Shown: piece after piece, positions 3,716 through 14,538 of the stretch
How positions within the stretch are numbered: position 1 is the first letter of the stretch
Layout of the letters: each line of letters begins with the position of its first letter
Made by a program: the position numbers and the translations under genes
The notes under the pieces: model-generated
What the model was told of the DNA's origin: nothing
Database searches by the model: none
Seen by the model: the letters and a program-made list of their open reading frames with translations, nothing else
Source: an uncultured bacterium
Lineage (GTDB): Bacteria; Desulfobacterota; Syntrophorhabdia; Syntrophorhabdales; JANXAF01
DNA: 64,000 nucleotides
Direction: 5' to 3'
Assembly: GCA_938084905.1 (NCBI GenBank)
Contig: CALKEQ010000002.1
Location: forward strand, 11,129-75,128

Positions 3716-3760
3716 ATTTTCCTTCACTATAATACTCGGAGCGGACGATTGTCAAGCTTT

Positions 3761-3868: not shown

Positions 3869-5953
3869 GTGATGCTTGAGAGAGGAATCAAAAAAACCCA
3901 GATCCTCGATAGAGCCCTCATCCCACCTTGCCAGGATGCGTGCCCCCTCCACCAGGATATAAGGGAATACGTTGACCTTATAGCCCAGGGAAGAATAATG
4001 GAAGCTCTAAAAGTGATAAGAGATAGAAATCCTTTTCCATCAATATGTGCCTATGTATGTCCACATAAATGCGAGGACAAGTGTCGCAGGGGAAGGGTGG
4101 ACAAACCTATAGCAATTAGAGCTCTTAAAAGATTCGCCGTTGAGTTCGGTGGGGACAGAATGGTCAGAAAGGAAGTGGAGGAAAGGTACTCTGAAAAAGT
4201 GGCTGTGATCGGTTCCGGTCCGGCAGGACTTTCCTGTGCTTACTACTTAAGAATTTTAGGTTATCCCGTAACAATATTTGAGGCTTACTCCGAGCCTGGA
4301 GGCATGTTAAGGGTCGGGATACCGGAGTTTAGACTTCCAAAGAAAATGCTCGACTTCGAAATAGAAAGGCTTGTGCAGATGGGTATAGAGATAAGGACAA
4401 ACACCCCTGTCACATCTCTCGATCTACTACTGGAAAAGGGATACAAAGCTATCTTTATAACTGTTGGGGCACATCAGGGAAGAAGGCTAGGGATAGAAGG
4501 CGAGGATGCAGAAGGAGTTATGGATGGGATATCCTTTCTCAGAGAGATAAATCTTGGCCTCAACCCGAAAATCAAGGATCGTGTGATTGTAGTTGGGGGT
4601 GGAGGAGTTGCAATGGATTGTGCGTTAGCCGCAGTACGGCTCGGAGCTAAGAAGGTTGACATCGTCTGCTTGGAAAAGAGAGAGGAAATGCCTGCAGGAA
4701 AGGAGGAGATTGAGTTCTGCGAGGAAGAGGGGGTGAAGATAAATCCAAGTTTTGGAGTAAAAAGAGTTATAAAGGAGGGAGGAAGGGTTGTCGGATTAGA
4801 ACTTGTAAGGTGCGTCTCTGTTTTTGACGAGAAGGGAAAGTTCAATCCAAAATTCGACGAATCGGAAAAAACCGTTATCTACGGAGATATGGTTATTTTT
4901 GCAGTAGGCCAGATGCCTAAAGTACCTGAGGAGTTCAACGTACACGTTGAAAGGGGAGGAACGATAAAGGTTGACCCTGTTACCCTGAGGACTAATAGGG
5001 AGGGGGTCTTTGCCGGTGGAGACGCTGTAACAGGTCCTGCTTCGGTTGTTGAGGCTTTGGCAACTGGTAAAAAGGCGGCAAAAAGGATTGATGATTACCT
5101 CCGCTATAGGTATCCTCTGGAGGAGACAGAAGAGAGACCGAAAATTGAACCGGAAATAAGGCAGAAGACTGTGGAAATGATAAGGAAGATTGAGAGAATC
5201 CAACCACCACTTAAGTCTGTAGAAGAAAGGATAGAAAGGTTTGAGCCTTTTGAGCTTGTTTACGACTGGGAAAGTGCGGTAAGGGAAGCAAAAAGGTGTC
5301 TAAGATGTGGGACAGGTGCTGAAATTTTCTACAAGGAAAAATGCGCAAGTTGCCTCACATGCGTCAGAGTTTGCCCTTATGGAGTTCCAGTTGTTGACGA
5401 GAAAGGTGAGATCGAGATTCCCCCTTCCGATTGTCTTGCGTGCGGCATCTGCGTAAGTGAGTGTCCTGCAAAAGCCATACTTTTGAGAAAGCCTGCGGAC
5501 AGGAGACAGGTAGATTTGGAGATTTCGGCTTTAGCGGGTGCGTCAAAAAAGGATGGTTCTCTCCACATAGTTGGTTTTGCGTGCCACTACGGTCTTTTTG
5601 GAGAGGGCAGTCTCTCTTACCTTTTCAGGACTCCAAAGGAGGGAATTTACATAGTACCGGTTCTCTGTATTGGAAAACTTGAAACAGAACACATACTTAA
5701 AGCATTCGAGCTTAAAGCTCAGGGCGTATTTATAGCCGGATGTGGAGAAGGTAGATGTGCAAGGGAGAACACAGACGCATTTGCAATAAGAAAAGCGGAA
5801 AGGGCAAAAAAGATACTTGAGAGACTCGGTCTTGAAAGGGAAAGAATAAGCGTTTTTACTGCCTCTGAGATGGACATCGAGAAAAAGCTTGAAATGTTCA
5901 TAGAAAGAATAGCCTCAATTATTCTGGAGAGGACCCTCAAGGAGGAGAAATGA
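3869..5953 (+). CDS. GltD/NfnB-like FAD/NAD(P)-dependent oxidoreductase fused to a 2x[4Fe-4S] ferredoxin domain and an MvhD/FlpD-like domain
   Basis: 694 aa. N-terminal Cys cluster (CQDACP...CAYVCPHKCEDKCRRG). Dinucleotide folds VAVIGSGPAGLSCAY and VIVVGGGGVAMDCA. CLRCGTGAE...CASCLTCVRVCPYG...CLACGICVSECPAKA. C-terminal HIVGFACHYG...VPVLCIGKLE...GVFIAGCGEGRCARENTD resembles the Mvh hydrogenase delta subunit. Start is GTG 3869 or ATG 3872. Confidence 0.8.
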   Translation: MMLERGIKKTQILDRALIPPCQDACPLHQDIREYVDLIAQGRIMEALKVIRDRNPFPSICAYVCPHKCEDKCRRGRVDKPIAIRALKRFAVEFGGDRMVRKEVEERYSEKVAVIGSGPAGLSCAYYLRILGYPVTIFEAYSEPGGMLRVGIPEFRLPKKMLDFEIERLVQMGIEIRTNTPVTSLDLLLEKGYKAIFITVGAHQGRRLGIEGEDAEGVMDGISFLREINLGLNPKIKDRVIVVGGGGVAMDCALAAVRLGAKKVDIVCLEKREEMPAGKEEIEFCEEEGVKINPSFGVKRVIKEGGRVVGLELVRCVSVFDEKGKFNPKFDESEKTVIYGDMVIFAVGQMPKVPEEFNVHVERGGTIKVDPVTLRTNREGVFAGGDAVTGPASVVEALATGKKAAKRIDDYLRYRYPLEETEERPKIEPEIRQKTVEMIRKIERIQPPLKSVEERIERFEPFELVYDWESAVREAKRCLRCGTGAEIFYKEKCASCLTCVRVCPYGVPVVDEKGEIEIPPSDCLACGICVSECPAKAILLRKPADRRQVDLEISALAGASKKDGSLHIVGFACHYGLFGEGSLSYLFRTPKEGIYIVPVLCIGKLETEHILKAFELKAQGVFIAGCGEGRCARENTDAFAIRKAERAKKILERLGLERERISVFTASEMDIEKKLEMFIERIASIILERTLKEEK

Positions 5954-6603
5954 TAGTTGCAACAAAAAAACCGATAGAGGAGATTTTAGTAGCTCTGGCT
6001 CCGTACGAGAGCGTTCTCATACTCGGATGCGGAACCTGCGTCACAGTCTGCAATGTGGGAGGTGAAAGGGAGGTCTCCCTTCTCCATTCCGCGTTGAGAG
6101 TTGCAATAGCGAACTCCTTGATGCAGCAAAAAAGATTTCACGAGTACACTGTGAAAAGGCAGTGTGACAGGGAATTTCTTGAGGCGCTAAAGGGAAAGTC
6201 TGAGGAGGTTGATGCGATTCTCTCCCTTGCCTGTGGGGTTGGGGTTCAGGTTCTTGCGGATTATTTCTCCGACATTCCATGTATTCCAGCTGTAAATACT
6301 GTCTTTATGGGTTCATCCTCTACATTTGGAATATGGGATGAAAGATGTGCCGGCTGTGGGGAATGTAGGCTTTATGAGACAGCTGGTATATGTCCTGTAA
6401 CGAGGTGTAACAAGGGGATCCTCAACGGACCATGTGGGGGAGCAAAAAACGGTAGATGTGAGGCAAATAAGGAGATGGATTGCGCATGGTTACTAATATA
6501 CGAGCGCCTACTCAAACTAGACCAGCTTGACCGTATGAGGAAATACTCTCCACCAAGAAATTACGGGAACCTAAAAAGACCGAAAAGGGTAATAATCACG
6601 TGA
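5950..6603 (+). CDS. metV: methylene-THF reductase FeS subunit MetV (copy 1)
   Basis: 217 aa. Cys-rich motifs GCGTCVTVC, CAGCGECRLYETAGICPVTRCNKGILNGPCGG, CEANKEMDCAW. ATGA overlap with the upstream gene. Followed by metF after 8 nt. Confidence 0.85.
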   Translation: MIVATKKPIEEILVALAPYESVLILGCGTCVTVCNVGGEREVSLLHSALRVAIANSLMQQKRFHEYTVKRQCDREFLEALKGKSEEVDAILSLACGVGVQVLADYFSDIPCIPAVNTVFMGSSSTFGIWDERCAGCGECRLYETAGICPVTRCNKGILNGPCGGAKNGRCEANKEMDCAWLLIYERLLKLDQLDRMRKYSPPRNYGNLKRPKRVIIT

Positions 6604-6611
6604 GGTAACCT

Positions 6612-7499
6612 ATGGCTGTCTCACTTTTTGAAGAAAAACTGAACTCTGATAAGTTTGTTGTAACAGCTGAGATCGGCCCACCAAAGGGAACGGATCTGAG
6701 TGAAATGAAAAAAAACATAGAACTACTTAAGGACAGAGTAGACGCACTAAATGTGACCGATCATCAGAGCTCTGTGATGAGGTATCCTTCCCTTGGAGGG
6801 TGTCTTCTCATAAAGGAACTAGGTGGGGAGCCTATCCTTCAGATGACAACAAGGGATAGGAATAGAATCGCCCTTCAGGCTGATCTCCTCTTCGCATATT
6901 CAAGGGGAATAAGGAACGTACTTTGTCTTACAGGAGATTCTGTGGATGTGGGTGACCATAAGGATGCAAAACCTGTCTTCGATCTCGATTCTGTCCAGCT
7001 AATAAGGATGATAAAGACACTTGAGACAGGTGTGGATATGGCTGGTAACAAACTCTCAGGCAAAGTTCAATTCTTTGTAGGTGCATCATGTAATCCTGAA
7101 GCGGACCATATAGAACCCCAGCTAATAAAGTTTGAGAAAAAGGTGAATTCAGGTGCCCGTTTCTTCCAGACCCAGGGGATATACGACGTCACTTTGCTTC
7201 GAAGATTCATGCAGTTCGCGAGGCAGTTTGGGGTGAAGATAATTGCGGGAATAATAGTTCTCTTCTCCTACAGGATGGCCACTTACATGAATGAAAATGT
7301 TCCGGGAGTTAAGGTACCTCCCCAAATCTTGGAGGAGCTTAAAGGCCTAGACAAAGAGGCGGCTTTGAGAAAAGGGATAGACATAGCTGCAAGAACTATA
7401 AGAACGATAAAAGAGGAGAAATTGTGTCACGGAGTTCACATAATGGCAATAGGCAGAGAGCATATAATACCGGAAGTTCTCGAAGCTTCCGGATTGTAA
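6612..7499 (+). CDS. metF: 5,10-methylenetetrahydrofolate reductase MetF (copy 1)
   Basis: 295 aa. VTAEIGPPKG, ALNVTDHQ, QMTTRDRNRIALQADL, NVLCLTGD are typical of MetF from MetVF-type enzymes. Confidence 0.9.
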   Translation: MAVSLFEEKLNSDKFVVTAEIGPPKGTDLSEMKKNIELLKDRVDALNVTDHQSSVMRYPSLGGCLLIKELGGEPILQMTTRDRNRIALQADLLFAYSRGIRNVLCLTGDSVDVGDHKDAKPVFDLDSVQLIRMIKTLETGVDMAGNKLSGKVQFFVGASCNPEADHIEPQLIKFEKKVNSGARFFQTQGIYDVTLLRRFMQFARQFGVKIIAGIIVLFSYRMATYMNENVPGVKVPPQILEELKGLDKEAALRKGIDIAARTIRTIKEEKLCHGVHIMAIGREHIIPEVLEASGL

Positions 7500-7511: not shown

Positions 7512-8294
7512 ATGGAAAATAGAAAGAAAATAATGATCATTGACGATGAAAGGGAGTTCCTTGACGCTTTCAAGAGAACCTTAGAGGCTAGAGATTTCAC
7601 AGTTTTCGTAGCAACGAATAGGCGCGAGGCGGAGGAAATATTACTGAAAGAGGAACCCAATTTCGTTATTCTCGGAACGATAACCCCAAGAGGTGATGCC
7701 TTCCAATTGCACAGGTTCATAAGATCCAATCCTAGGCTTAAAGAGGTTCCCCTAATAATAGTCGATGCTCCTCTTGAGAGGAGGCTAGTTGAAGGATGGA
7801 GTATGGATGAAGGTATTCAGATGGACGCGGATGACTATTTGACGAAACCTATAGAGCCATCGGCTCTCATTCCAAGAATACTTGCTCTTCTCGAGAAGGC
7901 CACAAGAAGGATAAAGGTCCTTATAGTGGATGACCATACCGTTGTAAGGGATGGGATAAAGGTGGTACTCAAGCTTCAGAAGGACATAGAGGTCGTTGGA
8001 GAGGCTGAAAACGGAGAGGAGGCTGTTGAGAAGTGCTTGAGTCTTCAACCTGATGTGGTCATAATGGATATTGTCATGCCGGTTATGAATGGTCTTGAGG
8101 CAGCACGAAGGATTTTAAAGGAAAGGCCTGAAACAAAGGTTATAATGCTCACTCAGTACGACGATGAGGAAAACATCCTCATGGCGGAAAAGATTGGAGC
8201 CTACGGTTTTATTCCGAAAAGATCCGCTTCCGACAAACTTATATCAGGAATAAGACAGGTGTATATGGGTAAGCGACTGGAGCACGCTGCATAG
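7512..8294 (+). CDS. output-less tandem receiver protein (pseudo-REC + canonical NarL-type REC)
   Basis: 260 aa. REC1 has DD and K-P, but Gly (codon 7674..7676) replaces the phospho-acceptor Asp (PNFVILGTITP). REC2 is canonical (PDVVIMDIVMP). No DNA-binding domain. SD AAAGGAGG lies 12 nt after the metF stop. Confidence 0.85.
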   Translation: MENRKKIMIIDDEREFLDAFKRTLEARDFTVFVATNRREAEEILLKEEPNFVILGTITPRGDAFQLHRFIRSNPRLKEVPLIIVDAPLERRLVEGWSMDEGIQMDADDYLTKPIEPSALIPRILALLEKATRRIKVLIVDDHTVVRDGIKVVLKLQKDIEVVGEAENGEEAVEKCLSLQPDVVIMDIVMPVMNGLEAARRILKERPETKVIMLTQYDDEENILMAEKIGAYGFIPKRSASDKLISGIRQVYMGKRLEHAA

Positions 8295-8345: not shown

Positions 8346-9908
8346 TTGTACAATTTCTTGAATTTCATCGAGGATGAGGCATTCGTTATAAACGATTCTT
8401 ATAACATCACCTTCGCCAATGAGCCCCTGCTCAAGAGGATCCTCTCGGGAGAAGGTAGATGCTTTGAAAGAATAGAGGGAAGGGATTCTCCATGCGGTTT
8501 TCCTCTCTGGGAATGCCCTCTAAACAGGGTTATTCGGGAAAAAAGGTCATTTTCCCTTGTCCACCCCTATCCTTCAAACAACCGACCTGATCCCGTCTAC
8601 GTTAAGGTCTCAATACATCCCATCTCGGAGAATCAGTTTCTAGAAATAAGAAGGGACGTAAGTGCGGAAAGGAAACTGGAGAAACAGGTAATTCTCCATC
8701 ATAACCACCTTGATGCCATAAGCAAAATATCGTCAGCTGTAAGCGGGCTCAAGGATTTAAAAAAGGTATTGGAGATAGCAATTAACACGGTACTCGATAT
8801 ATTCACAGGATCAATAGGCGGAATCATGCTTCTCGATGAAAAGACAAAGGAGCTAAAATACGAGGTTTTAAGAGGTTTGTCGCTTGATGCTTTGGAGGGT
8901 AAAGGTGTGAAGATGGGGGAAGGGATCTCCGGAAAGGTTGCAATGGAAGGGAAACCTCTTCTTATCCCAGATCTGAAAAAAGACGAATTTCCCGGATCTA
9001 CGGTCTACGTTAAGGAGGGGATAAGGTCTCTTATAAGTGTACCTCTGAAAGCAAAGGAGAAAGTACTTGGGGTCTTAAACATAATGAGTAACATTCCAGG
9101 TAGGTTCAATAGGGAGGACATGTACCTTCTGTCTTCAGTTGGTCACCAGCTAGGTGTGGCTATGGAGCAGGCTACTCTTTACGAGAGACTAACAGCTGCA
9201 AGGGAAAGGTACAGAAAACTCCTTCAAGTAGCATTGGCAATTCAGGAAGAGGAAAGGAAAAGAATAGCAAGGGAGCTCCACGACGAGACGAGTCAAAATT
9301 TGACTGCAATTTCTCTTAACCTTCAGGCCATAAAGGAAATGATGGAGGACGAGGGTCTTACACAAGAGGTAAAGGAGCTCATCAGAAAATCCCACTCAAT
9401 AGCAGTTAGCGCAAGTGGAGAACTAACGAGAATAATAAGGGAGTTAAGACCTACCCTACTCGATACCCTCGGACTTCCTGCTGCTATAAATCACCTTGTC
9501 GAGTCTAATTTAAGATCGAGGAACATCGAGGCAGAAGTGCATTTTTCAGACCTTGGAGAAAGGCTTGCGCCCGAAATCGAGCTTGCCCTTTTTAGAATAA
9601 CGCAGGAGGCTCTCAGTAATATCGTGAGACACTCAAAGGCAAAAAGGGCAAGAATAACCTTTAGTTATGATGAGAAGGAGTACAGACTGAGGATAGAAGA
9701 CGATGGTATAGGTTTTAATGTGCAAGAGATTAAGACAATAGAGGAGGGCGGAAGGGGGGCTGGTTTATTCGGGATGAAGGAAAGGGTTAGGCTTGTTGGC
9801 GGACGGTGCCACATAGATTCAGGACCTGGAATGGGAACTCGAATAAACGTATACGTTCCAAGGGCTAAAATGGAAAGTGATGAGGAAGATAAGGGTACTA
9901 GTGGTTGA
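8346..9908 (+). CDS. sensor histidine kinase: Cys-containing PAS-like N-domain, GAF, HisKA_3, HATPase
   Basis: 520 aa with TTG start. GAF region (GGIMLLDEKTKEL...GEGISGKVAMEGKPLLIPDL...LISVPLKAKEKVLGVLNIMS). H-box RIARELHDETSQNL. ATPase boxes (NIVRHSKA, DDGIGF, GGRGAGLFGMKERV). Confidence 0.85.
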   Translation: MYNFLNFIEDEAFVINDSYNITFANEPLLKRILSGEGRCFERIEGRDSPCGFPLWECPLNRVIREKRSFSLVHPYPSNNRPDPVYVKVSIHPISENQFLEIRRDVSAERKLEKQVILHHNHLDAISKISSAVSGLKDLKKVLEIAINTVLDIFTGSIGGIMLLDEKTKELKYEVLRGLSLDALEGKGVKMGEGISGKVAMEGKPLLIPDLKKDEFPGSTVYVKEGIRSLISVPLKAKEKVLGVLNIMSNIPGRFNREDMYLLSSVGHQLGVAMEQATLYERLTAARERYRKLLQVALAIQEEERKRIARELHDETSQNLTAISLNLQAIKEMMEDEGLTQEVKELIRKSHSIAVSASGELTRIIRELRPTLLDTLGLPAAINHLVESNLRSRNIEAEVHFSDLGERLAPEIELALFRITQEALSNIVRHSKAKRARITFSYDEKEYRLRIEDDGIGFNVQEIKTIEEGGRGAGLFGMKERVRLVGGRCHIDSGPGMGTRINVYVPRAKMESDEEDKGTSG

Positions 9909-10524
9909 TGACCACACGATCGTTAGGGATGGTATAAAAACTCTTCTTGCCTTAAGCTCGGATATTGAGGTTGTTGGGGAGGCTGAGAACGGTCTTGAAG
10001 CCCAAAGAAAAGTAGGTGAGCTTAAGCCCAATGTGGTCCTTATGGACATATCTATGCCTGGAATAGATGGGATTGAGGCGGCGCGAGCAATAACATCCAA
10101 ATTCAAAGATGTAAAGGTGATAATGCTCACTCAGTACGAAGGAAAGGAAGATGTTCTGGAGGCGATAAAGGCGGGAGCAAAGGGTTTTATAAGTAAGAAG
10201 GCAGCCTCCACAGAACTTGTCCAGGCAGTAAGGGCAGTATCATCAGGAGGTGCGTACTTCTCTCCAGGTGTTGCAAAGATCTTGATGGATGAATGTATGG
10301 ATCTTATTAAAGAGAAGGCGCCCCATGAGATCCTCACACCGCGAGAGATAGAAATCTTAAAGCTCATAGGGGAGGGTTACTCTGACAAAGAAATAGCTCA
10401 GATCCTTTTTCTCTCTCCAAGAACAGTTGAGACGCATAAGGCTAAAATAATGGAAAAGCTCCACCTGAGAAAAAAGGTGGAGCTTATAAAATACGCTATA
10501 AAGAAGGGGATCGTTAAGCTCTAA
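9877..10524 (+). CDS. NarL/LuxR-family response regulator (REC + HTH)
   Basis: 215 aa. REC with PNVVLMDISMPGIDG. C-terminal LTPREIEILKLIGEGYSDKEIAQILFLSPRTVETHKAKIMEKL. Overlaps the kinase 3' end. Start is GTG 9877 or ATG 9880. Confidence 0.9.
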   Translation: MMRKIRVLVVDDHTIVRDGIKTLLALSSDIEVVGEAENGLEAQRKVGELKPNVVLMDISMPGIDGIEAARAITSKFKDVKVIMLTQYEGKEDVLEAIKAGAKGFISKKAASTELVQAVRAVSSGGAYFSPGVAKILMDECMDLIKEKAPHEILTPREIEILKLIGEGYSDKEIAQILFLSPRTVETHKAKIMEKLHLRKKVELIKYAIKKGIVKL

Positions 10525-11444
10525 AATTTAGGTCTTGGATAAAGACCTGCAGCCTGGACGATCTCGGGTACAGTCTCCTCCCACTCAATTGCCATTATGT
10601 GGACACCAGAAACCCCTTTTATCTCTTTGAGCTGATTTATTATATCGACACATATTCTTATCCCCTCTTTAGGTACCTGATCCTTAGGAACACCCTGAAG
10701 TCTCGTTATGATCTCGTCTGGAACATCCATCCCTGGGATCTTCGTTTTCATGTATTTTGCAGCACCCACAGACTTTATAGGCGCCACACCTGCAAGTATT
10801 TTTACCCTCTCATGGAGCCCGAGATCCCTTATTCTTCCCATCCACTCCTTAAACTTCTCAACGTTATAGACTATCTGGGTCTGTATAAAGTCTGCACCAG
10901 CTTCTATTTTTTTCTTCAGTCTTAAGACCCTGAATTCAAAAGGGTCAGCAAATGGGTTCTCAGCTGCTCCTATGAAAAGTCTCGGTTCGTAAGAGATTGG
11001 CTCTCCATTTTGAAATTTTCTCTCGTCCCTCATGTCCTTAACGATTTTTATCAGCTGGACAGAATCCACATCATAGACACCCTTTGCCTGAGGATGGTTT
11101 CCAAACTTCTGGTGATCACCTGTCAAGCAAAGAACGTTGTTTATACCAAGGGCCGCAATACCTAGTATATCCATTTGAAGAGCTATCCTGTTCCTGTCGC
11201 GACACGTCATTTGAACAATTGGATCTATCCCGTACTCCTTTCCAATCAGGCACGCAGCCCAGCTCGCCATTCTCACAACTGCCGTCTGACCGTCTGTTAC
11301 GTTGAAGGCATCAACGTATCCTGAAAGAACTTTTGCCTTCTTCCTTATAACTTCAGGATCTGCGCTCTGGGGAGGTCCAATCTCTGCAGTAACGGCAAAA
11401 TTCCCTCCCTCCAATACTCTTTCGAGATTACTTCTCGTTTTCAT
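10521..11444 (-). CDS. metF: 5,10-methylenetetrahydrofolate reductase MetF (copy 2)
   Basis: 307 aa. VTAEIGPPQS, AFNVTDGQ, QMTCRDRNRIALQMDI, NVLCLTGD. By eye roughly half the residues are identical to copy 1. Its stop codon overlaps the stop of the convergent regulator gene. Confidence 0.9.
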   Translation of the reverse strand: MKTRSNLERVLEGGNFAVTAEIGPPQSADPEVIRKKAKVLSGYVDAFNVTDGQTAVVRMASWAACLIGKEYGIDPIVQMTCRDRNRIALQMDILGIAALGINNVLCLTGDHQKFGNHPQAKGVYDVDSVQLIKIVKDMRDERKFQNGEPISYEPRLFIGAAENPFADPFEFRVLRLKKKIEAGADFIQTQIVYNVEKFKEWMGRIRDLGLHERVKILAGVAPIKSVGAAKYMKTKIPGMDVPDEIITRLQGVPKDQVPKEGIRICVDIINQLKEIKGVSGVHIMAIEWEETVPEIVQAAGLYPRPKF

Positions 11445-11454
11445 CTCCTACCTC

Positions 11455-12102
11455 CTAGAACCTTTTTACTGGTGGACCCGCAACAAGACTCACACTCCAG
11501 TCCTTTGGAGGAACGATCTTCTCCATTTTCTCGAGCCTTCCCAACTCCTTGAGCCTCTCGTAGATTAGGTGCCAGACACATGGGATTTCAGGGTCTACCT
11601 CACACTTTTTTCCCTGGGAGCCACCGCAAGGACCATTTAAGAGATGTTTTGAGCACCTAGATATGGGGCAGAGTCCTCCTGTGTATTCGAGGACGCAATT
11701 CCCACACTCCATACATCTTTCTGCTCCCTTCCATTCCGCATGGCCCCCTCCTGAGGAGACGGTATTACAACCTGGATGAACCATCTTTTTTACTAGCTCG
11801 GAGACAACCTGGACTCCGGCGCCGTCTGTGAATACAAGGATAGAGTCAGCCTCATCTATCTTTTTCTTGTAGTTTTTCAGCTTTAAGGCGGCAAGGGCTT
11901 TGTCGCAGAGCATGTCCACAAGAGCATACCCGGTCACAATTTTTCCACTTTCCTCAAGCCTTCTCTTCATTTCGATTATCTCTTTTTCCCCTCCACTCTC
12001 CCATCCTTCCGCACATCCCCTACATCCGACGAGAAAAACTTTACTCTCTCCATTAAGATAGCCCATTATCTCTTCAAAGGGTTTCTGTTTTGAGATAAGC
12101 AT
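11455..12102 (-). CDS. metV: methylene-THF reductase FeS subunit MetV (copy 2)
   Basis: 215 aa. GCRGCAEG, CMECGNCVLEYTGGLCPISRCSKHLLNGPCGG, CEVDPEIPCVW. Lies 12 nt after the hydrogenase large subunit and 10 nt before metF2. Both gaps contain GGAGG-type SDs. Confidence 0.85.
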   Translation of the reverse strand: MLISKQKPFEEIMGYLNGESKVFLVGCRGCAEGWESGGEKEIIEMKRRLEESGKIVTGYALVDMLCDKALAALKLKNYKKKIDEADSILVFTDGAGVQVVSELVKKMVHPGCNTVSSGGGHAEWKGAERCMECGNCVLEYTGGLCPISRCSKHLLNGPCGGSQGKKCEVDPEIPCVWHLIYERLKELGRLEKMEKIVPPKDWSVSLVAGPPVKRF

Positions 12103-12114
12103 CCCTTTCCTCCT

Positions 12115-13674
12115 TTATATAATACGAAAGACCTTTCCTTCCTTTCCGCGTGCATCTATTATGTGGATCGAACAGGCAAGGCAAGGGTCAAAGGATCTGA
12201 TCACTCTAACAATCTCAAATGGATTTTTCTCGTCTTTAACCTTCACTCCAATTAGTGCCTGTTCCATAGGACCTGGCTGGTCTTTATCGTCCTTTGGAGA
12301 AATATTCCATGTTGATGGGCTGATTACCTGGTAGTTCTCGATCTTCTTCTCTTTTATCTTTATCGCATGGCACAGCGCACCTCTAGCAGCCTCAACGAGT
12401 CCTATTCCTTCTGACTCATTAGGGATCTCGTAGGGAATGTAACTCGGTTCTCCGATCTTAAGGCTCAAGACCCATTCCTCCATTGCCTCTGCTAGAAGCT
12501 TAGTTTCTAAAGCCCTTGCAAGATGCCTTCCCATTGTGGAGAACATGTCTTGAGGCTTTAAGCCTACTTCGGATAATGCCCCATCTATAAGTTCTTTTAC
12601 CTTTTCATTCCCGTCTGCGTAATTGACCATCATCCTCGCAAGTGGACCAACCTCATAAACCATACCATCGTACCTTGGGGACTTGAGCCAGGAGTAAGCG
12701 AGAGACTTTTGAGCAACTGGAGCGGTAACCCCTTCCGTTGGATTTCTTCCGCTTGATGAGTCTTCGTAGAAAGAGTATTTCACATACTCGGCTATCTTTT
12801 GAGGATCAATCTCCTCATACTTGAGGCTTAAGGAAGTTCTACCCGCCTTGTGAAACCTCTTTCTTTTGATAAGATTTTTCTCTTTTCCATCAAGGTCGTA
12901 AGCTCCGTAAGAGAGAACCCTCCCGCATCCTTTACCGATCTGGAAGTAATCAGAATAAACCTTTGCGAGAGCAATAACATCCGGAATGTAAAAGTTCTCT
13001 ACGAAATCTCTGATTTCCCTTAATCTCCAAAGAAAATTTGAAATGCTGTCCACAGTTGGTACTGAGGCAACACCTCCTGGAAGCACACCCACATTATGAG
13101 GCATCTTCCCTCCGAAGATGGCCACCATCTCTTGCCCCTTCCTTCTCATGTGAAGGGCCTTTACATAGTGACTCACTAAAGCCTCGTTGATTTTGTCCGG
13201 AAGTCTGTAATCCCCTTCGTACCTCGGGACAAAAGGACCGAGCTCCCCCCTCTTTATGAAGTTCTTGATGGACAGAAGATCCTGATCATCTCCTTCGTAG
13301 TCCTTTATCCTTGTCACATCCACATAGTCTAGTGCACAGAGATGGTAAAAGTGGAGAATGTGGTCTGAAAGCTCTGCAGCACCAAGAATAAGATTCCTTA
13401 TGATTCTTCCATTATCTGGGATTTTGTCATCTATTCCAAAGGCACTATCCAGGTTCAATGCGGATGCCACTGCATGCGGAGCAGGACATACACCGCAGAC
13501 TCTCTGTGTGATTCTCTGGGCATCCCTAGGATCCCTTCCCTTCAGTATTATCTCCAAACCTCTAAAGAGCATACCAGAGCTTTTAGCATCGGTGACCACA
13601 CCATTTTCGATCTCCACTTCCACCTTTAGGTGGCCTTCTATCCTTGTAAGAGGATCTATTACTATCCTTCCCAT
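12115..13674 (-). CDS. [NiFe] hydrogenase large (catalytic) subunit
   Basis: 519 aa. N-terminal RIEGH and RVCGVCPAPH (RxCGxC). C-terminal DPCLACSIH followed by a 15-aa tail, the substrate of a maturation endopeptidase. Confidence 0.92.
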   Translation of the reverse strand: MGRIVIDPLTRIEGHLKVEVEIENGVVTDAKSSGMLFRGLEIILKGRDPRDAQRITQRVCGVCPAPHAVASALNLDSAFGIDDKIPDNGRIIRNLILGAAELSDHILHFYHLCALDYVDVTRIKDYEGDDQDLLSIKNFIKRGELGPFVPRYEGDYRLPDKINEALVSHYVKALHMRRKGQEMVAIFGGKMPHNVGVLPGGVASVPTVDSISNFLWRLREIRDFVENFYIPDVIALAKVYSDYFQIGKGCGRVLSYGAYDLDGKEKNLIKRKRFHKAGRTSLSLKYEEIDPQKIAEYVKYSFYEDSSSGRNPTEGVTAPVAQKSLAYSWLKSPRYDGMVYEVGPLARMMVNYADGNEKVKELIDGALSEVGLKPQDMFSTMGRHLARALETKLLAEAMEEWVLSLKIGEPSYIPYEIPNESEGIGLVEAARGALCHAIKIKEKKIENYQVISPSTWNISPKDDKDQPGPMEQALIGVKVKDEKNPFEIVRVIRSFDPCLACSIHIIDARGKEGKVFRII

Positions 13675-14538
13675 TTATACCTCCTTCGGAAATTGGGCTT
13701 CTTCTATTTTCACGTAAAGGGGTGAAACTTCGTCAAGGAAACCTTCTGAACAGCATCCTATACATGTGGATCCACATCCGACGCACCAGTTGACCTTGCC
13801 ATTCCAAAGTCTAATTGGACAATCGGCGTATGTTACTGGACCTCTACATCCAAGTTCGTAAAGGCAGCCAGGATCACCGAATTTCTTTGCAAATTTCTTT
13901 TCATCGTAATAGGCCCTTCTTGGGCAGTTTTCATGTATTGTCTGAGAAAAAAAGAGCTTTGGTCGACGAAGTTCATCAAGATCCTCCTCTTTCGGAAGTC
14001 CAAATAGCAAAACACTTGCGACTGTTCCAACGAACCAGTCAGGATGGGGAGGACATCCGGGGATATTTATATAAGGTGTTTTTATTCCGTATTCCTCAAG
14101 AACCTCCCCGACCGATTTGCAACCTGTTGGGTTGGGATTCCCCTTCGGTATACCTCCGAATGATGCACAGGACCCAAAAGCGATAACACAAAGGGCTGAA
14201 GAAGATAGATCCAAAATCCAGGAGAGCATAGTTATCGGTTTTTTGTCCCTTTCCCCAATAACCCCGTATATTCCATTATCCTTCGTGGGAATTGCCCCTT
14301 CGACGATCAAGACGTATCCCTTTTCCCTTTTAGTACTTGATAGAACCTCAAGGATTGCCTCTCCCTGTCCTGCCATTATGTTTGGATGGAATCTGAGATT
14401 CACATGTTTTTCTGGGACTACCTCGTCTATTAACAAATTTTTGATATTCGGGTAATCTGCGTTGAGGACCGAGATGGAGCAACCCGTGCAACCTGCAGCC
14501 TGGATCCATATTGCAGGAAGCTCAGTTACTTTTCCCAT
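13675..14538 (-). CDS. [NiFe] hydrogenase small subunit, no twin-arginine signal (cytoplasmic)
   Basis: 287 aa. Proximal-cluster Cys (AAGCTGCS, GSCASFGG, PGCPPHPDW). Medial/distal motifs (HENCPRR, GCLYELGCRGP, CPIRLWN, WCVGCGSTCIGC). The N-terminus MGKVTELPAIW has no RRxFxK. Confidence 0.92.
   Translation of the reverse strand: MGKVTELPAIWIQAAGCTGCSISVLNADYPNIKNLLIDEVVPEKHVNLRFHPNIMAGQGEAILEVLSSTKREKGYVLIVEGAIPTKDNGIYGVIGERDKKPITMLSWILDLSSSALCVIAFGSCASFGGIPKGNPNPTGCKSVGEVLEEYGIKTPYINIPGCPPHPDWFVGTVASVLLFGLPKEEDLDELRRPKLFFSQTIHENCPRRAYYDEKKFAKKFGDPGCLYELGCRGPVTYADCPIRLWNGKVNWCVGCGSTCIGCCSEGFLDEVSPLYVKIEEAQFPKEV

Follow-up and report, generated by a model that had tools for sequence, protein, structure and literature searches.

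Where the methylene-tetrahydrofolate (methylene-THF) reductase step obtains its electrons, and whether it conserves energy (a point open since 1977), is a long-standing question of the Wood-Ljungdahl pathway. The same question is raised by a locus in the 64,000-nucleotide stretch of DNA analysed here (hereafter, the window: positions 11,129 to 75,128 of contig CALKEQ010000002.1, assembly GCA_938084905.1), from an uncultured bacterium of the Syntrophorhabdales (Desulfobacterota). In it, a gene for a 694-amino-acid (aa) flavoprotein, in which a GltD/NfnB-like module, a ferredoxin domain and an MvhD domain are fused, stands directly upstream of metV and metF, the genes of a MetVF-type methylene-THF reductase (MTHFR). 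An initial annotation of the window had proposed that this protein is a compact, NAD(P)H-linked and possibly bifurcating electron-input module for MetVF, replacing the Hdr/Mvh partners of other organisms. Our analysis points, with a probability of roughly 0.6, to a linear, non-bifurcating NADH:methylene-THF oxidoreductase encoded by the three coupled genes, with the fusion protein as its electron-input subunit. The sequences show which domains are present, which ligands never vary, how the genes are coupled, that their synteny is conserved and that the parts are homologous; from this we infer complex formation, cluster order, NADH as the donor and a non-bifurcating mode.

A flavoprotein gene coupled to metV and metF

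The three genes that carry this proposal are the following:
3869..5953, plus strand: GltD-ferredoxin-MvhD fusion gene, 694 aa from GTG 3869 (Pfam and NCBIfam domains; identical 693-aa record, P0004)
5950..6603, plus strand: metV1, iron-sulfur (FeS) subunit of MetVF, 217 aa (PF12225, 4.3e-35)
6612..7499, plus strand: metF1, flavin-containing methylene-THF reductase subunit of MetVF type, 295 aa (PF02219, 3.6e-40)

The fusion reading frame is uninterrupted over 694 codons from GTG 3869; ATG 3872 gives the 693-aa form recorded in the public protein collection and is the probable true start. The junctions are as initially annotated: the stop codon of the fusion and the start codon of metV1 overlap as ATGA at 5950..5953, with AGGAGGAG upstream of the overlap, and the metV1 stop (6601-6603) is separated from the metF1 ATG (6612) by 8 nucleotides (nt). 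A tandem-receiver gene begins 12 nt past metF1 with its own Shine-Dalgarno sequence, as does each gene of the operon whose start was read (all except metF1), and a search for terminator-like sites between the operon genes found none. The best promoter-like match of the region (3726-3755, minus strand; TTGACA-18-TATAGT, 11/12) is directed toward the divergent CoA-transferase/GntR/MeaB genes, and no promoter-like match of comparable quality was found before the fusion gene.

MetF1 scored 71.6 bits against the E. coli-type equivalog TIGR00676 (cut-off 293.7) and matched MetF structures in the PDB weakly (best 5e-11); the PDB holds no MetV structure. The locus thus has both marks of a MetVF core, a MetF that is not of the E. 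coli type (PF02219) and a metV (PF12225) directly beside it, and the operon is predicted to encode a MetVF-type methylene-THF reductase core (type II core) plus the upstream fusion subunit. The absence of adjacent HdrA, HdrB and HdrC genes was also confirmed: no Hdr gene adjoins the fusion operon, and the 17 CCG (HdrB) domain matches of the genome all lie on contigs C1, C3, C4, C8 and C10, with none on C2, the contig of the window.

Domain architecture and cluster ligands of the fusion protein

The domain search suggested with the initial annotation placed four Pfam domains above their curated cut-offs, namely Fer4_20 (residues 19-93), Pyr_redox_2 (110-400), a 4Fe-4S dicluster domain (491-537; E = 2.8e-07) and FlpD/MvhD (567-677). 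Together with the translation, this bears out the architecture first described, a GltD/NfnB-like FeS region followed by FAD and NAD(P) folds, two CxxCxxCxxxCP motifs and an MvhD domain. Its elements are:
3923..4147, plus strand: N-terminal FeS region, Fer4_20, residues 19-93 (Pfam E = 1.4e-20), with C21, C25, C60, C64, C68, C72 and K87
4196..5068, plus strand: FAD and NAD(P) Rossmann domains, Pyr_redox_2, residues 110-400 (Pfam E = 2.8e-31)
4667..4675, plus strand: coenzyme-specificity triplet C267-L268-E269 (from the translation), standing where NfnB, StnC and DsrL-2 have Y-R-R
5297..5308, plus strand: C477-x2-C480 following the flavin domain, invariant in 119 sequences and aligned with RCLECG of 9bov_A and 9n5u_A
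5333..5479, plus strand: 2x[4Fe-4S] ferredoxin domain, residues 489-537 (Pfam Fer4_9, Fer4_7, Fer4_10)
5567..5899, plus strand: MvhD/FlpD domain, residues 567-677 (Pfam FlpD, PF02662, E = 5.7e-19), with C572, C600, C625 and C630

In NCBIfam, residues 14-539 were matched by GltD/NfnB-like "NAD(P)-binding protein" models, while HdrA2/HdrA models matched residues 488-684 only, that is, the ferredoxin and MvhD tail; identification of the fusion as an HdrA was rejected on this ground. No RnfC-type domain was present among the Pfam/NCBIfam matches of this protein upstream of metV1.

Twenty cysteines are invariant across 119 orthologues: C21, C25, C60, C64, C68, C72, C477 and C480 in the body, C492/495/498/502-P and C522/525/528/532-P in the two CxxCxxCxxxCP motifs, and C572, C600, C625 and C630 in the MvhD domain, the last four aligning with cysteines of the solved MvhD 5odc_D (5e-13). 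We read these residues as putative ligands of five clusters: a pair of [4Fe-4S] clusters belonging to the GltD-like body, another pair to the ferredoxin domain, and a [2Fe-2S] cluster to MvhD, the domain that would presumably serve as the adaptor to MetV.

The closest solved relatives of residues 19-533, in sequence as in fold, were NfnA of NfnABC (best, 9bov_A, 2e-108; also 9n5u_A) and StnC of Sporomusa ovata (8oh5_C, 4.5e-97), ahead of NfnB/NfnL (4ylf_B, 1.2e-71; 5jca_L, 5.6e-71), dihydropyrimidine dehydrogenase and GltD. The fusion shares with StnC (8oh5) and NfnA (9bov, 9n5u) a PPCxxxCP start, the lysine of an LKRF motif and a CxxC past the flavin domain. This lysine, K87 (nt 4127-4129), is invariant in the 119 orthologues, aligns with the LKRF lysine of 9bov_A and 9n5u_A, and occupies the position of the ligand of the FAD-proximal cluster, Lys170 in StnC and Glu117 in NfnB. 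In StnC, whose GltD module with its two clusters spans residues 102-565, this module binds NADPH and FAD, the proximal cluster has the strictly conserved Lys170 as ligand, and it has been demonstrated that the FAD does not bifurcate and supplies a linear chain of clusters (PMC10482914). Unlike the fusion, which has C-L-E, StnC and NfnA carry YRR and use NADPH, extend into NuoG- or formate-dehydrogenase-like domains and dock a HydBC-like bifurcating module; neither a NuoG/FdhF-like continuation nor HydBC-like genes were found near the fusion, which ends in its ferredoxin and MvhD domains.

With NfnB/NfnL of NfnAB (NfnSL; 4ylf, 5jca) the fusion shares a homologous FAD/NAD(P) fold, two [4Fe-4S] clusters and the arginine of the FRLP motif (R155, invariant). 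It differs from NfnB in having lysine for the glutamate ligand, no N-terminal CxxC, an invariant CxxC past the flavin domain and no YRR, and in the absence of an NfnA/NfnS partner gene alongside it, the neighbours being metV, metF and regulators. C477-x2-C480 would take over from the N-terminal CxxC of NfnB and supply the remaining ligands of the second [4Fe-4S] cluster in the GltD-like module. An AlphaFold2 model computed on a 42-sequence alignment (mean predicted local distance difference test, pLDDT, 68.7; predicted template modelling score, pTM, 0.43; linker 419-481 below 50) was used for the domain-level fold search and not for inter-domain geometry or cluster distances.

The fusion is co-inherited with MetV

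In the public protein collection, proteins of ~700 aa with the same domains, 56-83% identical, make up considerably more than a hundred clusters at the 90% identity level, the majority from metagenome-assembled genomes (MAGs) of Chloroflexi/Dehalococcoidia. Among 401 sampled genomes of the phylum of the window, an orthologue of at least 56% identity was found in four (G000, this genome; G001; G403; G093), with metV-metF directly downstream in all four. The genomic co-occurrence that the initial annotation had asked about was seen in 10/10 orthologous loci from two phyla (Desulfobacterota and Chloroflexi/Dehalococcoidia MAGs), all with the order fusion-metV-metF. In a MetV tree, the ten fusion-linked MetVs formed one clade (support 100/100), apart from Hdr-linked MetVs and from the hydrogenase-linked MetV2 described below. 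Since the gene order recurs in every orthologous locus and these MetVs form a single clade, the link between fusion and MetVF is more than chance.

In all six loci whose gene tables were read (L016/17, L018, L051-L054), the fusion gene is followed by metV, metF and the tandem-receiver gene; a GAF/HisKA_3 kinase lies near the operon in six of six and a LuxR-type regulator in five, the two-component pair flanking the operon in the Chloroflexi MAG loci and in L053. Regulation of expression probably lies with the GAF kinase, the NarL-type regulator and the tandem-receiver protein inherited along with the operon. In two of the Desulfobacterota genomes (G403 and G093; loci L021 and L022, family f50), the fusion has the YRR form of the coenzyme triplet and MetV nests within a clade of Chloroflexi-like assemblies, a position suggesting that the whole cassette may have been transferred laterally between phyla.

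A collection of genome contigs was also scanned with the single fusion protein as query, and the only match was an unrelated Streptococcus flavoprotein. In L053, a metagenome relative with a 70% identical fusion, a stand-alone POR gamma gene, cysS and a 339-aa gene without Pfam match occupy positions 1-2608, a few kb upstream of the fusion operon.

Relation to known methylene-THF reductases

A classification of 2021 recognises four types of MTHFR (PMC8760232), and the fusion-MetVF module is none of them; full-text searches of openly accessible papers turned up no description of this combination of subunits. The nearest type in its parts is type IV, MetFV-HdrCBA-MvhD, in which the HdrA of Moorella thermoacetica carries a GltD NAD(P)H/FAD domain (PMC9430772, PMC8760232). 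Like the type IV enzymes of M. thermoacetica and S. ovata (Mock et al. 2014; PMC9430772), the present locus has MvhD beside metV, a GltD-type NAD(P)H/FAD domain and a C-terminal ferredoxin domain. In contrast to them, it lacks HdrB, HdrC and the thioredoxin-reductase-like HdrA flavin domain(s), the presumed site of bifurcation; its single flavin domain is GltD-like, its MvhD is fused to the upstream protein instead of being encoded by a separate gene, and the remaining parts are united in one 694-aa chain. The classic partners of MvhD/FlpD are likewise missing, with neither an MvhAG hydrogenase nor HdrA in the operon, the nearby hydrogenase belonging to a convergent metVF2 operon.

The homology to type IV enzymes can be followed part by part. 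The ferredoxin-MvhD stretch stands directly upstream of metV in 12 further Desulfobacterota loci, and in many Desulfobacterota it sits at the end of, or just past, an HdrA-like frame of 1000-1650 aa. In the 1317-aa HdrA-like protein of locus L060, from the same phylum, the GltD-like part (residues 2-477) has 42% identity to residues 24-502 of the fusion, the C-terminal ferredoxin domain (residues 1250-1312) has 56% identity to its residues 492-555, and a second FAD domain lies at ~905-950; a separate MvhD and then MetV follow, with MetF seen past them by tblastn. Because these parts are homologous and the published description of the Moorella HdrA agrees, the fusion corresponds, on sequence homology, to the GltD domain and the C-terminal ferredoxin from either end of a Moorella-type HdrA, linked to MvhD, with the HdrA flavin core and HdrBC missing. 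In the type IV-like loci of the phylum (L026-L047), many of the HdrA-like/MvhD frames that precede metVF are interrupted once or twice by in-frame TGA codons, which may be selenocysteine codons, by analogy with the selenocysteine reported for mvhD and hdrA of Desulfococcus multivorans (PMC5109826).

In its expected mode of action the module resembles type III instead. The RnfC2-MetV-MetF enzyme of Acetobacterium woodii (Bertsch et al. 2015, in PMC8760232) also has three co-encoded subunits, a MetVF core unable to bind NAD(P)H plus one extra FeS flavoprotein with a pyridine-nucleotide site, and there the additional NADH-binding subunit makes MetVF NADH-dependent and non-bifurcating (PMC8760232). 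By analogy, a soluble, non-bifurcating, NADH-dependent reduction of methylene-THF would be expected here. The input subunits differ, RnfC2 being an FMN-binding, RnfC-like protein with a MetV-like N-terminus, unrelated to the GltD/NfnB-like FAD, ferredoxin and MvhD fusion. The best reading is thus of an enzyme that would work like type III, built from type IV parts.

Outside the MTHFRs, the layout of the fusion recurs in DsrL, an NAD(P)H:acceptor oxidoreductase and the partner of DsrAB (PMC7596348), with its N-terminal 2x[4Fe-4S] region, FAD and NAD(P) domains, flexible linker and C-terminal 2x[4Fe-4S] ferredoxin. An MvhD domain is lacking in DsrL, and its gene accompanies dsrAB, whereas the partners here are metVF on C2, with dsrAB at C4:136056-138211.

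A coenzyme motif pointing to NADH

The Y-R-R motif binds the 2'-phosphate of NADPH in NfnB and separates the NADP(H)-specific DsrL-2 from the NAD(H)-using DsrL-1 (PMC7596348), and a split into YRR and non-YRR forms is found in the fusion family as it is in DsrL. Because C-L-E replaces the NADPH-binding YRR in the protein studied here, we predict from this motif that it uses NADH. The triplet is CLE in 33, YRR in 85 and YSR in one of the 119 orthologues, and all eight paralogues have C-L/I-E. In a tree rooted with these paralogues, the YRR sequences form one derived, mostly Chloroflexi clade (SH-aLRT 100) nested among CLE forms, and by the same motif most Dehalococcoidia orthologues are predicted to use NADPH. 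Both forms are linked to metVF (three context look-ups each).

Proposed electron path and alternative readings

In the proposed enzyme, NADH would pass a hydride to the FAD of the GltD-like module, from which single electrons would exit via the two [4Fe-4S] clusters of this module to the two [4Fe-4S] clusters of the ferredoxin domain, and onward through the [2Fe-2S] cluster of MvhD to the FeS clusters of MetV. MetV would then reduce the flavin of MetF, and MetF would reduce methylene-THF to methyl-THF, the product of the operon being one soluble three-subunit methylene-THF reductase. The notion of a compact input subunit for MetVF in place of Hdr/Mvh partners gains support from synteny and gene coupling, the co-inheritance of MetV, the 20 invariant cysteines and the homology to type IV parts. 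Of the label "NAD(P)H-linked, possibly bifurcating" first given to it, the NAD(P)H module stands, narrowed to NADH by C-L-E. Bifurcation has become less likely, since the HdrA flavin domain is missing, no NfnA-like branch is present, the module is of the StnC/NfnA type and all clusters fit one chain.

Several points weigh against this proposal. It is drawn from genome sequences, its NADH assignment depends on a single three-residue motif, and the AlphaFold model is mediocre and gives no inter-domain geometry. The FAD of the GltD module has a homologue in the FAD at which NfnB bifurcates, and R155 of FRLP is kept, so that bifurcation is compatible with the sequence. The type IV complex of Moorella, composed of parts of these same kinds, shows no NADH-dependent methylene-THF reduction by itself, which has been taken as a hint of obligate bifurcation (PMC8760232). 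Homologues without a link to metVF, named in advance as evidence to the contrary, do occur among the more distant paralogues of the same architecture (6/8 not beside metVF), and are absent among the orthologues (0/10). Finally, acetyl-CoA synthase (ACS), formyl-THF synthetase (FTHFS) and FolD were not detected in the 98%-complete assembly, which leaves the pathway served by the enzyme uncertain.

The same three-subunit enzyme might operate in reverse, oxidising methyl-THF to methylene-THF with NAD+ in a methyl-group/acetyl-CoA oxidation tied to sulfate reduction, a direction that we consider unlikely although it fits several features of the organism and its relatives. The genome encodes DsrAB, ACS is present in relatives with the cassette, sulfate reducers of the complete-oxidising kind use the Wood-Ljungdahl pathway in reverse (PMC2702500), and the type III enzyme of A. 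woodii is reversible upon product removal (PMC8760232). However, oxidation of methyl-THF by NAD+ is endergonic (~23 kJ/mol), the assembly yielded no FolD, the enzyme that would draw the reaction onward, and the coupling of the neighbouring MetVF to a hydrogenase is thermodynamically sensible mainly in the reductive sense. The direction is not readable from the sequence; given the neighbouring hydrogenase-MetVF operon, the reductive one is the more natural.

More doubtful is a minimal bifurcating or confurcating MTHFR, in which the NfnB-like FAD would send one electron along a high-potential route to MetVF and methylene-THF and the other along a low-potential FeS route to ferredoxin (2 NADH + Fd(ox) + CH2-THF -> 2 NAD+ + Fd(red) + CH3-THF, or the reverse in methyl-group oxidation). 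The N-terminal 400 residues are indeed homologous to NfnB/NfnL in sequence and fold, and R155 of the FRLP motif, which we take to correspond to NfnB R201, is counted in favour of this scheme. MvhD is attached to a bifurcating system in every characterised complex, the related Moorella complex appears to require a second acceptor (PMC8760232), and an energy-limited anaerobe would profit from conserving the ~23 kJ/mol released when NADH reduces methylene-THF (PMC9430772). Against these points, there is no NfnA-like partner, the only second flavin being that of MetF, and the protein lacks the thioredoxin-reductase-like domain of HdrA, the part that carries out bifurcation in Hdr complexes. Nearest to it among solved structures are StnC and NfnA, whose FAD is non-bifurcating and whose lysine, not the glutamate of NfnB, is found in the fusion (PMC10482914); by homology to StnC and to the C-terminal ferredoxin-MvhD pair of HdrA, the five clusters would fit a single chain, and the three-subunit enzyme of A. 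woodii manages without bifurcation (PMC8760232). That fusion-MetVF could be the smallest electron-bifurcating methylene-THF reductase, with one branch via MvhD, MetV and MetF, is accordingly an idea to which we give little weight.

It is very improbable that the fusion is a free-standing NAD(P)H:acceptor oxidoreductase serving several partners (DsrL-like or a ferredoxin:NAD oxidoreductase), merely co-transcribed with metVF, since, although its architecture is that of DsrL plus an MvhD domain (PMC7596348), its paralogues adjoin hydrogenase or unrelated genes and the full-length architecture recurs in ~40 of the 150 top-ranking cluster representatives, metV comes next in 10/10 orthologous loci, with the ATGA overlap in the window, MetV is co-inherited with the fusion, and ferredoxin-MvhD is also the element beside metV in Hdr-type loci.

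A second MetVF operon and the genome context

Downstream of metF1, the window continues with three regulatory genes and a convergent operon:
7512..8294, plus strand: tandem-receiver protein, conserved cassette member (Pfam Response_reg x2)
8346..9908, plus strand: GAF/HisKA_3 sensor kinase (Pfam)
9877..10524, plus strand: NarL/LuxR-type response regulator (Pfam)
10521..14538, minus strand: [NiFe]-hydrogenase small (287 aa) and large (519 aa) subunits, metV2 and metF2 (Pfam, tblastn)

The genes within 16 kb comprise MeaB, GntR, CoA-transferase, regulators and this hydrogenase-MetVF operon. The second metVF pair (10521..12102, minus strand) lies behind the [NiFe]-hydrogenase genes; MetV2 is 35% identical to MetV1 and falls with its G001 counterpart on a separate, very long branch, and both MetVF modules with the intervening regulators are arranged alike in G001 (L014). 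The hydrogenase-linked MetVF2 has a different electron input from the fusion-linked MetVF1, and the two-component system between the two operons suggests a regulated choice of H2 or NADH as reductant.

The genome (1.54 Mb, 16 contigs, C1-C16, 98% complete) encodes DsrAB, GlyA, FolP, three formyl-transferases and a CooS-like gene, while domain searches across C1-C16 revealed no ACS (PF03598), FTHFS (PF01268), FolD (PF02882), MetE (PF01717) or MetH homocysteine domain (PF02574). A lone Pterin_bind protein was considered as a methyl-THF methyltransferase and rejected, as it follows ftsH and looks like FolP. ACS was found in all five other genomes tested, four of which carry a fusion-metVF locus. 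In G001, ACS and FolD belong to one ~16-kb cluster without counterpart in G000, and in G001 and G002 the two genes lie within ~6 kb of each other. We did not adopt the description of an organism without the Wood-Ljungdahl pathway: because the G001 genes form one cluster that is absent from G000 and the formyl-transferases persist, one missing contig explains the data as well as real loss. The persistence of users of formyl-THF argues for an assembly gap.

Paralogues and the wider family

Of the eight paralogues of the same architecture (34-40% identity), two precede metVF and some adjoin NifS/IscR/NifU genes. In the sister genome G001, a 724-aa paralogue (35% identical; locus L015 on G001:C23, 3978-8606, minus strand) is followed by genes for the small (PF01058) and large (PF00374) subunits of a [NiFe]-hydrogenase, with a catalase-peroxidase-like 726-aa gene upstream of it. 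Judging from its domains, this locus appears to encode a hydrogenase of Mvh type that is NAD(P)-linked and lacks HdrA, and it suggests that the GltD-ferredoxin-MvhD module may be a general pyridine-nucleotide input or output for MvhD-docking partners. Paralogues of the same length in G358 and G309 (L057, L058), convergent to a CN-hydrolase gene, keep the cysteines of the GltD and ferredoxin parts and have lost three of the four of the MvhD domain, which may be degenerate there.

In an exhaustive search of 50%-identity cluster representatives, the metVF-linked orthologues fell into one cluster, and the full-length architecture was present, at 36-46% identity, in ~40 other clusters of the top 150. 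Because so many other clusters share this architecture, the module family is broader than its MetVF-dedicated branch: judged by sequence, GltD-ferredoxin-MvhD proteins are a wide input/output family in which the MetVF-dedicated group is one well-defined branch.

Significance

Of the Hdr-type enzyme, itself poorly understood, the module retains the NAD(P)H domain, the ferredoxin wire and MvhD as adaptor but not the Hdr core, and thereby offers a simple three-protein system in which to study MvhD-MetV coupling and possible bifurcation at the GltD flavin; should it bifurcate after all, it would be a three-protein system that conserves the energy of the methylene-THF step. New here are the presence of an NADH-type motif in this lineage and the polarity of that motif on the family tree, the homology, part for part, to Moorella-type HdrA, the lysine-ligand marker, the hydrogenase-linked paralogue and the caveat of the undetected Wood-Ljungdahl genes. 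The single switch from C-L-E to YRR in the family provides a natural NADH/NADPH pair for studying coenzyme choice. The module is common in uncultured Dehalococcoidia, so that metabolic reconstructions of subsurface Chloroflexi hinge on its role, and, if the proposed function is true, it would be a widely distributed means of driving a central step in the one-carbon metabolism of anaerobes.

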